Of a stretch of DNA of 64,000 bases, positions 29,921-31,826 are shown piece by piece; position 1 is the stretch's first letter; each line of letters opens with the position of its first letter. The translations under genes and the position numbers were made by a program. The notes beneath the pieces were generated by a model that made no database searches, was not told the origin of the DNA, and was given only the letters and a program-made list of their open reading frames with translations. The DNA is from Escherichia coli (GTDB lineage: Bacteria > Pseudomonadota > Gammaproteobacteria > Enterobacterales > Enterobacteriaceae). The stretch lies in the NCBI RefSeq assembly GCF_041248615.1, contig NZ_CP158426.1. The stretch is one strand, 5' to 3'.

Positions 29921-30388
29921 TCATCGAAGGCATTGCGTCCTGATGTATTCCTGAAGCGTTCTCAGTGCTGTTTGGTCGCGGATAATTCCGTCCCGGACAC
30001 CGAGAACGTTTCGTCCAGCAACTGGAGAGAGTTCGACGGTGGCATCATTGCCCATGCCGGAGGCGCTGGAGGTTTCGGCTGAGGATGGCACAGGGCATTT
30101 TCCTTTGACGAGCACCCTGCCACCATTATCAAGCTTGCGCCGAAGAGCATCATTTTTAGCTTTCGCATCAGCTAACTCCTTCGTGTATTTAGCATCGAGT
30201 ACATCAGCAGCACGCTGGCGTTGCTGCATGTTAGTAATGGTGGCGGTCGCCTGCTTCAGCTCACTGACTTTTTTATCTCGCTGTTCTTTGTAGGCGATGG
30301 CGTTATCACGGTAATGATTGACCGCCCACGACAGGCAGACGATGATGCAGATAACCAGAGCATAAATAATCGCGGCGACTCTGCTCAC
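29921..30388 (-). CDS. Rz: i-spanin Rz
   Basis: Lambda Rz-like ([29 protein letters not shown]); GTG start overlapping the endolysin stop. Confidence 0.8.
29962..30168 (-). CDS. Rz1: o-spanin Rz1 (lipoprotein embedded in the +1 frame of Rz)
   Basis: Signal and lipobox [13 protein letters not shown], Pro-rich mature part, lambda Rz1-like. Confidence 0.7.
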
Positions 30389-30918
30389 TGATCTATCCCC
30401 CAACAGGCTAATGCGCTTTCCTGGTCACGACGAATAACCTGTCCGTAGCAGTTATTTGAACGTGTGCGGCAATCACGCCCACCGTCCTTAATCCACCAGC
30501 GAATCGACTCACAGGCACCTTTACGATCACCGGCATTAAGCCGCTTATAAAACGTCGACGGGAAACACTTACCGGGACCAATGTTATAGGGACAGAATGA
30601 CGCTATACCCGCTTTCTGTGGTTCGGTCAGTGGTACTTTAATATTGCGCTCCACCCATGCCAGCGCCTTATCACGTTCAATAGCGTTAACCTGGTCGCAT
30701 TTTTCCTTCGACAGCTTCATTCCCGGTATGACGGGCTTACCATCCACCATTGTGGCACCACGACAGATGGTCCATATACCGGAAGCATCGCGGTATGCCG
30801 TTGTGTGGTTACCTTCTTTTTCATCCAGAAACTGGTCGAGAATATCAGGCGCAGGCGCACCGACGGCAATCAGTGCCAGAACGGCAGCCGACAGGCCGTA
30901 TCTGATTTTTGCGTTCAT
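30385..30918 (-). CDS. R: SAR endolysin (lysozyme, phage 21 R-like)
   Basis: N-terminal signal-anchor-release helix [17 protein letters not shown] followed by a lysozyme domain. Confidence 0.85.
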
Positions 30919-31261
30919 GGATATTTATCAGGATTTATCGGTTTCTGAACCCTGGATATGTTTATCTGTCCCGGCCTGTTGAATCAGGCGGGGAAAAGGT
31001 AAAGACAATCAAGAGGATTATTTATGGGCAATAACACCATTTCTCTACAGGAGTTGCTCGACTGCATTTCCAGGCTTCGGGATGATGTAAATGCCCTCAC
31101 TGTTGCATTTTCATATCTGGCCTTCTCAATTCCCAGAGAACAAATGCAACCAACACTGGCATCGCTTCTGCTTGAGTCACGCAACCCCAAATGGTCCCAG
31201 GAACAACAAAATTCTTTCAAGTGGCTGGCGGCATTACTGGAAGAAAAATATGCTGGTGAAA

Positions 31262-31606
31262 TTACCATTTCGGCGGAGTCTTCAGAGAACCAGTAATTCT
31301 TCCCGGTAGCTTTCCTTTGTAGGTTATCCACACATTCTGCGCCTCTAAAATTATGGGGCGCTTTTCCGGCGACTGCTCATCCCCTTCACATAACCCGGCA
31401 GCACCATCCAGGAAGAACTGTCTAATGCTCCTTCTCGCTGCTGCCTCATAAAACTCCAACGCGGCACCTTCAACACGGTCCAGCGAGATGTCCAGGTCAA
31501 AAATTTCACCGTCAAAGCGTTTTTTGTCCCGTAAGGCTACAGTTACCGCCACTTTATTCTCAAAATTGCGGACTCCTTTCACAACCAGTTCATAGTCTTG
31601 TGTCAT
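31262..31606 (-). CDS. hypothetical protein between holin and endolysin
   Basis: ORF in the S-R interval; no recognised motif; start uncertain. Confidence 0.4.
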   Translation of the reverse strand: MTQDYELVVKGVRNFENKVAVTVALRDKKRFDGEIFDLDISLDRVEGAALEFYEAAARRSIRQFFLDGAAGLCEGDEQSPEKRPIILEAQNVWITYKGKLPGRITGSLKTPPKW

Positions 31607-31610
31607 TGGA

Positions 31611-31826
31611 TTACTCTCTTCTCGCAACCTTACGCCTGTCTTCTTTAATCTTGAAATAAAGGTTTGTCAGATACGTCAGCAGGCCAAAAACCAGACTACC
31701 CAGCACACCGATTGCAGCCCACTGTGACGGAGTTACTTTATCGAGTAACTGCAATGCCCAGAAACCAGCATTACCAGCCGATGTGCCATAGGCGATACCT
31801 GTTGTTAACTTATCCATTGATTTCAT
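31611..31826 (-). CDS. S: pinholin (phage 21 S-like class II holin, dual-start MKSM)
   Basis: 71 aa, [28 protein letters not shown]... close to S21 including the Met1/Met4 dual start. Confidence 0.85.

Follow-up and report, generated by a model that had tools for sequence, protein, structure and literature searches.

The 64,000-nucleotide stretch of Escherichia coli DNA analysed here (contig NZ_CP158426.1 of assembly GCF_041248615.1; hereafter the window) very probably carries an intact lysis cassette of a lambdoid prophage, composed of a pinholin, a signal-anchor-release (SAR) endolysin and a two-component spanin, which would lyse its host by the pinholin route. The cassette lies on the minus strand at 29921-31826, a span that runs exactly from the stop codon of the spanin gene Rz (29921) to the start codon of the holin gene (31826). 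All four lysis genes are present with intact reading frames, and PHROGs matches agree with Pfam for all four proteins. An earlier note, made from the letters alone, had placed a phage-21-type cassette at these coordinates and expected lysis by the pinholin route rather than by the lambda S/R route. Both ends of the span and the four family matches agree with it, and the pairing of a PF04971 holin that has two predicted transmembrane domains (TMDs) with an endolysin that has an N-terminal hydrophobic domain argues for the proposed route.

In the RefSeq annotation, the cassette is flanked by a complete module of terminase, portal, capsid and tail genes and, on its other side, by a Q-like antiterminator gene, cspF, cspB and ynfU, the same late-region layout as in the K-12 Qin cryptic prophage. 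The same genes occur at 94-100% identity in phages deposited as isolates (2H10, mEp460 and Chlobot), and the 2.4 kb surrounding the cassette are 100% identical to the chromosome of E. coli NRZ14408 (NZ_LT599825.1). Coordinates and family matches are collected in Table 1.

A dual-start holin with a SAR-like first helix

Neither a phage 21 genome record nor a printed S21 sequence was found for direct alignment. We therefore used proxies: EssD of the K-12 prophage DLP12 together with the PF04971 profile for S21, and RrrD of DLP12 together with the PDB entry 3HDE for the endolysin R21. The holin matches PF04971 ('Bacteriophage P21 holin S') over profile positions 1-63 of 64 (116 bits, cut-off 26; E = 7.3e-34). 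It is 90% identical to EssD, 96% identical to EssQ of Qin and 100% identical to the holin of phage 2H10. The gene opens with ATG AAA TCA ATG, read as M-K-S-M, the dual-start motif. Putatively, Met1 at 31826 yields an antiholin form of 71 residues, with one additional positive charge, and Met4 at 31817 a holin form of 68 residues. The spacing of GGGG and GAGG elements 5' of the gene would suit starts at Met1 and Met4, and this 5' region is almost the same as that of essQ.

A scale-based scan places TMD1 at residues 9-25, with 65% Gly/Ala/Ser/Thr and an approximate insertion energy of +6.8 kcal/mol; this composition and energy read as the signature of a helix able to leave the membrane, that is, of a SAR-like helix. 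TMD2 (residues 37-53, or roughly 37-57; approximate insertion energy +0.2 kcal/mol) is identical to that of EssD and carries G40, S44 and G48, a GxxxSxxxG face. The GxxxSxxxG motif is important for TMD2 of S21, the hole-forming helix. The comparison with the 68/71 start of S21, which the earlier note had drawn from the MKSM residues, extends to a class II holin of the S21 family with a SAR-like TMD1.

An endolysin with a Cys-free N-terminal anchor

The endolysin is a GH24 lysozyme, and a PDB search returned R21 (3HDE, E = 9e-17; 3HDF) and RrrD (4ZPU) among the best matches. Its catalytic motif E-x8-D-x5-T (E35, D44 and T50) starts at residue 35, as it does in RrrD and in the Qin enzyme RrrQ. 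At the N terminus, K4 and R6 are followed by an Ala/Gly/Ser/Leu stretch of 15-19 residues, with an approximate insertion energy of +2.7 to +5 kcal/mol (RrrD, +0.15). Residues 5-21 score +2.7 kcal/mol, with 47% Gly/Ala/Ser/Thr (59% in RrrD) and a Kyte–Doolittle hydropathy of 1.8; the same scan gives no such N-terminal hydrophobic segment for T4 lysozyme. The N-terminal SAR helix proposed from the letters thus appears, on this scale-based prediction, as a weakly hydrophobic, Cys-free stretch at residues 5-23.

Cys residues are found at positions 52, 74, 109, 118, 136, 150, 157 and 172, and none within residues 1-30. In the P1 Lyz class, a Cys in the SAR domain drives disulfide isomerisation. Because the SAR domain is Cys-free here, we group the enzyme with the R21 class, in which activation proceeds by refolding. 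RrrD has four Cys residues against eight in the window enzyme; the four that have no aligned partner in RrrD form C-x8-C and C-x6-C pairs in inserted loops, as might be expected if folding takes place in the oxidising periplasm.

A spanin pair with Rz1 embedded in Rz

The GTG start codon of Rz overlaps the endolysin stop (GTGA). Rz has a strongly hydrophobic TMD at residues 4-22 (approximate insertion energy -3.4 kcal/mol) and Cys residues at 98 and 153. It is 96.8% identical to Rz of mEp460 and 58% identical to RzpD of DLP12, its N-terminal 85 residues being nearly identical to those of RzpD. Rz1 is embedded in Rz, as the earlier note had it; it lies wholly inside Rz in the +1 frame, and its ATG stands 8 nt after AAGGAG. 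The precursor carries the lipobox V-A-G-C with Cys19, and the mature part of 50 residues has eight Pro residues and Cys27; identity to RzoD is 48%. We take Cys98 and Cys153 of Rz and Cys27 of Rz1 to correspond to C99/C152 and C29 of the lambda proteins, which form intermolecular disulfides. Rz1 has no coding sequence (CDS) in the RefSeq annotation; an equivalent Rz1 of 68 residues was called by the gene caller in a related locus (L013). Surveys of Shiga toxin (Stx) phages report that automatic annotation misses Rz1 there as well (PMC8136144, PMC10462455).

Table 1. Features of the lysis cassette and its surroundings, with coordinates in the window
Feature	Coordinates	Strand	Basis or description
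Q-like antiterminator gene	33729-34481	minus	
Holin S, 71 aa, class II (S21/EssQ type)	31611..31826	minus	PF04971
YdfR/DUF1327 protein, 114 aa	31262..31606	minus	PF07041, E = 6.8e-42; phrog_406 positions 1-114 of 114
Hairpin 3' of orf90	31339..31367	plus	7-bp stem, 9-nt loop, then UUUUCC; 43 nt past orf90 stop
orf90, 90 aa	31024..31296	plus	RefSeq CDS WP_032354201.1; phrog_2411 positions 1-90 of 90, E = 4e-57
Inserted module of ~400 bp carrying orf90	roughly 30925..31335		three-way DNA alignment (window, K-12 Qin, mEp460)
Stable hairpin 5' of orf90	30965..30999	plus	-18.6 kcal/mol, z = -3.9
Endolysin R, 177 aa, GH24 lysozyme, RrrQ/mEp460 type	30385..30918	minus	PF00959, E = 7.5e-25
Predicted SAR domain of endolysin, residues ~5-23	30850-30906	minus	
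Rz i-spanin, 155 aa	29921..30388	minus	PF03245, E = 4.7e-28; phrog_13 positions 1-154 of 154
Rz1 o-spanin, 68-aa precursor	29962..30168	minus	PF06085, E = 3.8e-21; phrog_3198
orf50, 50 aa	29781..29933	minus	RefSeq CDS, hypothetical; phrog_11822 positions 1-50 of 50
Terminator-like hairpin just 3' of the cassette	29728..29747	minus	8-bp stem, 6 GC pairs, T-run

Proposed course of lysis

In the lysis sequence that we propose, transcription on the minus strand would proceed from a late promoter 3' of the Q-like antiterminator gene. The holin gene would give both the antiholin (from Met1) and the holin (from Met4), and both would accumulate in the inner membrane, while the N-terminal signal-anchor, uncleaved, would keep the Sec-exported endolysin bound to the membrane and inactive. 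The holin would trigger at a set time, its TMD1 leaving the bilayer and its TMD2 oligomerising into small holes that collapse the proton-motive force. Depolarisation would free the SAR domain of the endolysin from the membrane, upon which the enzyme would refold and degrade the murein, and the Rz/Rz1 complex would then disrupt the outer membrane. Two genes without features of lysis proteins, ydfR and orf90, would interrupt the cassette as passengers.

Two genes between holin and endolysin

The earlier note had reported one extra open reading frame (ORF) between the holin and endolysin genes. That ORF is real and encodes YdfR, but the gap holds two genes, of which orf90 had been missed.

The ydfR start lies 5 nt past the holin stop. 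By hydropathy, YdfR has no hydrophobic segment and no export signal, and this late protein is predicted to be cytoplasmic. Its close likeness to K-12 YdfR ends at about residue 67; the window, K-12 and mEp460 proteins all have different C-termini. An exhaustive HMMER search returned 63 representative clusters only, with a conserved core of ~70 residues and assorted tails; across 21 diverse members, the core is conserved and the C-termini are variable. AlphaFold2 models residues 1-73 as three strands and a long helix, with a predicted local distance difference test (pLDDT) score of 78-90 for residues 1-70, and the tail (residues ~75-114) is predicted to be disordered (pLDDT <50 for residues 75-98). 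On the strand opposite the codons for this tail lie the 3' end of orf90 and the orf90 hairpin, and the same tail is fused to an unrelated N terminus in P0098. On this pattern it is best seen as a by-product of the insertion of the orf90 module.

A 2026 study of K-12 YdfR found by bacterial two-hybrid analysis and co-purification that residues 1-72 bind the catalytic half (N-terminal domain) of RNase E (PMC13232886). In the same work, YdfR co-purified with RNA, its overexpression had little effect on the transcriptome, and a genetic screen tied ydfR to envelope integrity (PMC13232886). No feature seen in its sequence marks it as a lysis protein. As a separate observation, a protein of 3,128 residues with 14 G2F-domain stretches (P0110) matches YdfR residues 6-59 at six separate places (34% identity, E = 4.6e-11), which hints that the beta-sheet core of YdfR resembles part of a repeated domain.

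The second gene, orf90, lies on the strand opposite the lysis genes and overlaps the 3' end of ydfR by 35 nt, with a ribosome-binding site of its own, AAGAGGA, 7 nt 5' of its ATG. It is carried by an inserted module; in K-12 Qin and mEp460, from which the module is absent, the end of ydfR either overlaps the start of the endolysin gene or lies no more than 55 nt away. Of 5,426 complete E. coli genomes, 1,119 (about a fifth) have the module at a coverage of at least 80%. Phage Chlobot carries it in the same position and orientation, and another prophage type (L011/L012) carries it without ydfR. The orf90 frame has a ratio of nonsynonymous to synonymous substitution rates (dN/dS) of 0.17-0.42 and is 90 codons long in all good-quality diverged copies; one poor-quality contig has stops in both frames. 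Judged by this comparison of copies, orf90 is a real protein-coding gene under purifying selection.

An ORF of 115 codons on the minus strand (31331..30984), co-directional with the lysis genes and fully overlapping orf90, was rejected as a real gene: it has internal stops in the EC1639, APEC, L010, L011 and L013/L014 copies. The antisense ORF shares the wobble positions of orf90 and hence the same low dN/dS (~0.16), which mimics purifying selection. This artefact is a useful caution for overlapping-gene calls.

The orf90 product gave no Pfam, NCBIfam or PADLOC match and belongs only to a PHROG family of unknown function. All its homologues, which are at least 72% identical, come from Escherichia, Shigella and E. 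albertii, and outside Escherichia and Shigella none was found bar one partial fragment labelled Pseudomonas. Hydropathy gave no transmembrane segment, export signal or lipobox. The protein is modelled as soluble and four-helical (AlphaFold2 pLDDT 72), and a Foldseek search of this model against the PDB returned nothing below E = 0.7.

Two hairpins flank the gene. The one 3' of orf90 folds at -13 kcal/mol on the plus strand (z = -2.2) and at -8.8 kcal/mol on the minus strand (z = -0.2). The copies preserve it, L010 with U-A in place of U-G, and it failed the loop and T-run rules of the terminator scan. We regard it as a candidate plus-strand terminator for orf90, weak on the minus strand. The hairpin 5' of orf90 keeps its stem in diverged copies despite different lower-stem sequences. 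A scan for sigma-70 promoters of orf90 found none. By eye, a weak conserved TTTATC-N17-TATGTT lies 5' of the gene at 30934-30962, which we do not regard as evidence.

By analogy, orf90 resembles a self-contained opposite-strand moron of the lysogenic-conversion type such as lambda bor. Both bor (and borD of DLP12) and orf90 are small self-contained genes opposite the late strand, in or near the lysis region, whose presence varies among phages. The bor product, however, is an exported lipoprotein encoded 3' of Rz, whereas orf90, situated between S and R, is predicted to encode a soluble helical protein with neither a signal nor a lipobox.

Related loci differ at a further junction of the cassette. 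In the related prophage L011 (89-623), a ParE-like toxin/ParD-like antitoxin pair sits directly 3' of the endolysin, where Rz/Rz1 would be expected; at this locus (Logan contig SRR11015012_142), orf90 is present and ydfR absent. In E. coli EC-1639 (L006 315-663) and phage Chlobot (L005 3973-4131), extra small hypothetical ORFs lie between endolysin and spanin. The S-R gap is an insertion hot spot, and from the latter two loci the R-Rz junction appears to be a second one in the cassette family.

Their place inside the cassette raises the question of whether YdfR, orf90 or both are working lysis parts, acting as an antiholin-like timer, as a lysis inhibitor or by antisense control of the holin/ydfR mRNA. 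In favour of such a role, Qin, mEp460 and many E. coli prophages keep YdfR between S and R, transcripts of orf90 would run head-on towards ydfR and S, with the orf90 hairpin inside ydfR, and K-12 ydfR has the genetic link to envelope integrity (PMC13232886). Yet neither protein has a transmembrane segment or an export signal, and neither matches a defence or lysis family. DLP12, whose endolysin is near-identical to that of phage 21, has neither gene, phages exist both with and without orf90, and orf90 also occurs without ydfR. The sole biochemical lead for YdfR is its binding to RNase E, and possibly to RNA (PMC13232886). A lysis role is, on balance, unlikely. We regard as distinctly unlikely a further proposal, in which the orf90 module is a lysogen-expressed element acting on the lysis cassette or on incoming phages, with YdfR in parallel modulating RNase E late in the phage cycle. 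This proposal draws on the restriction of the module to Escherichia/Shigella, on its purifying selection and on its exact placement between the pinholin and endolysin genes. By one possible route, convergent transcription or antisense pairing against the ydfR/S late mRNA would suppress leaky holin expression; by another, the small helical protein would act on a host or phage target. We favour the reading of both genes as passengers.

Relationship to known lysis cassettes

The essD-rrrD-rzpD-rzoD cassette of DLP12, our stand-in for phage 21, shares with the window the PF04971 holin, the MKSM start and an identical TMD2. Its endolysin has the same GH24 fold, the same E35/D44/T50 numbering and a Cys-free N-terminal anchor, and its Rz1 is likewise embedded in Rz. 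It differs in that S, R and Rz are contiguous, without ydfR or orf90, and the C-terminal halves of its Rz and Rz1 differ from those of the window. The essQ-ydfR-rrrQ genes of K-12 Qin are the closest named relatives of three window genes (EssQ, 96%; RrrQ, 91.5%; YdfR residues 1-67, mostly identical) and share the upstream context (Q-like gene, cspF, cspB and ynfU, then S). In contrast to the window, Qin has its own spanin pair, RzpQ (annotated DUF2514) and RzoQ, with no meaningful similarity (21 identities in 66 aligned residues); it also lacks the orf90 module, and the C terminus of YdfR is replaced in the window. Phage mEp460 has the same S-ydfR-R-Rz/Rz1-orf50 order, with R at 95% and Rz at 97% identity, but no orf90. 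The temperate phages 2H10, Chlobot and PhiR40_1 are, with mEp460, among the nearest relatives of the cassette.

Given that Rz and Rz1 are of mEp460 type and the Qin spanins are unrelated to them, the cassette is, by sequence comparison, a mosaic put together from known parts. Qin-like are S, the core of YdfR and R; mEp460-like are R again, Rz, Rz1 and orf50; and the predicted mechanism is phage-21-like.

The lambda cassette (S105/S107-R-Rz/Rz1) has in common with this one the order of holin, endolysin and embedded spanin, a dual-start holin and Q-dependent late transcription. Lambda S, however, is a class I holin with three TMDs, and the holes that it makes are very large; lambda R, which has no signal-anchor, is a transglycosylase that stays soluble in the cytoplasm. 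By contrast, the window holin belongs to PF04971 with two TMDs, and the window endolysin has an N-terminal hydrophobic domain.

Cassettes of Stx phages are more distant: their holins are 73-76% identical, and they sit 3' of stx and nanS-p, not of csp genes. A pinholin with a SAR endolysin has already been predicted in ~99% of Stx phages (PMC8136144) and is the predicted norm among them (also PMC10462455). The finding is therefore already known in kind, and the earlier note was right to call it known biology.

Points against the pinholin reading, and alternatives

Several points weigh against an intact cassette of the pinholin type. The endolysin is 91.5% identical to RrrQ and 94.9% identical to the mEp460 lysozyme, and only 36% identical to RrrD and the experimentally studied R21; a literature search found no paper directly testing an enzyme of the RrrQ/mEp460 type and no functional study on rrrQ or essQ. 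Our hydropathy scan combined Kyte–Doolittle values with Hessa apparent insertion energies; its results are approximate, and it is not a trained topology predictor. At the dual start of the holin, the predicted RNA fold is no better than shuffled controls (z = +0.28), and we therefore make no claim of RNA control of the two starts. The endolysin ATG, like that of mEp460, has no recognisable Shine-Dalgarno sequence (..CCTGATAAATATCC ATG; window 30919-30960, minus strand). The stop of ydfR and the start of rrrQ overlap in K-12 Qin (ATGA), suggesting a translational coupling that is lost here through the orf90 insertion. With no clear Shine-Dalgarno sequence and the ydfR-R overlap lost, expression of R in the window could be lower. 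Finally, each dynamic step of the proposed lysis sequence is taken from the phage 21 literature, with hole size, Sec dependence and release dependent on the proton-motive force assigned by homology.

The likeness to phage 21 is accordingly uneven. By alignment it is strong for S and partial for Rz and Rz1 (58% and 48%), and for R it holds for the mechanism and not for orthology. RrrD differs from the R21 chain of 3HDE at only two of the aligned positions displayed. By inference from these comparisons, the window endolysin works like R21 but is not its orthologue, belonging instead to the RrrQ/mEp460 lineage.

Alternatively, the cassette could be in decay and no longer functional, as are the cryptic cassettes of DLP12 and Qin in K-12. 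It belongs to a chromosomal prophage with, in the RefSeq annotation, an IS1 copy elsewhere in the element, and the orf90 insertion parts ydfR from an R gene without an obvious Shine-Dalgarno sequence. Decay is seen in related copies, with a frameshift in rrrQ of APEC E18006 and an IS3-family element beside R in AVS0223. It is nevertheless very unlikely here, as all frames are intact, the holin shares 100% identity with its 2H10 counterpart and R and Rz share 95-97% with theirs in mEp460, phage Chlobot has the same S-ydfR-orf90-R order, and the packaging, head and tail module is complete.

It is highly improbable that the endolysin N terminus is an ordinary cleavable Sec signal peptide and the enzyme is secreted, processed and restrained otherwise. 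The positively charged n-region, the h-region of 15 residues and the small residues at -3/-1 in VGA and APA would fit such a peptide. But both of these AXA-like sites have Pro next, as does ASA in RrrQ and the mEp460 lysozyme; the stretch resembles the SAR domain of R21/RrrD in its wealth of Gly/Ala/Ser and its marginal hydrophobicity; and the gene is paired with a holin of the S21 family, which is known to work with SAR endolysins and not known to work with others. Pro at +1 blocks E. coli signal peptidase I, which makes an uncleaved signal-anchor the likelier reading.

Surroundings of the cassette

At the Rz end, orf50 overlaps the Rz stop by 13 nt and has one N-terminal transmembrane helix predicted by hydropathy. 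Its counterpart in mEp460 is gp58, annotated hypothetical, and orf50 may be the last gene of the transcription unit. Rfam and tRNA scans gave no match within the cassette. At the holin end, cspB, cspF and ynfU (32045-33306) sit between the Q-like antiterminator gene and the holin, so that late transcription must cross ~1.9 kb of cold-shock morons; two terminator-like hairpins (32297-32278 and 31916-31903) also lie in its path. A match to the cspA thermoregulator in Rfam (159.6 bits; 32516-32955, minus strand) covers the cspB 5' region.

Further 3' of the cassette, roughly at the position of bor in lambda and DLP12, 28521-28847 (minus strand) encodes a small lipoprotein-like protein (signal ...LSALAVGC) with a TonB C-terminal domain (PF03544, E = 3e-12), which may be a moron acting on TonB-dependent uptake. 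For an ORF of 95 residues at 29415-29702 (minus strand), the match to phrog_3527, a profile of 233 positions and unknown function, is confined to positions 139-230; the ORF may be either a truncated remnant or a C-terminal domain that stands alone. A region that appears to be host chromosome outside the prophage (54448-55103) contains two naRNA4 matches on the minus strand (54448-54641) and, on the plus strand (54781-55103), a tandem array of three tRNA-Leu(CAG) genes.

Significance

The cassette indicates how this prophage would lyse its host: through depolarisation by a pinholin and self-activation of a pre-exported lysozyme, which is textbook phage biology and, on earlier descriptions, the norm in Stx and other lambdoid phages. 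The term phage-21-type describes the mechanism and not orthology, the endolysin belonging to a different GH24 lineage, and the embedded Rz1 gene is absent from the RefSeq annotation. The gap between S and R carries YdfR, a recently reported RNase E binder, together with the uncharacterised orf90, found in about 20% of complete E. coli genomes.

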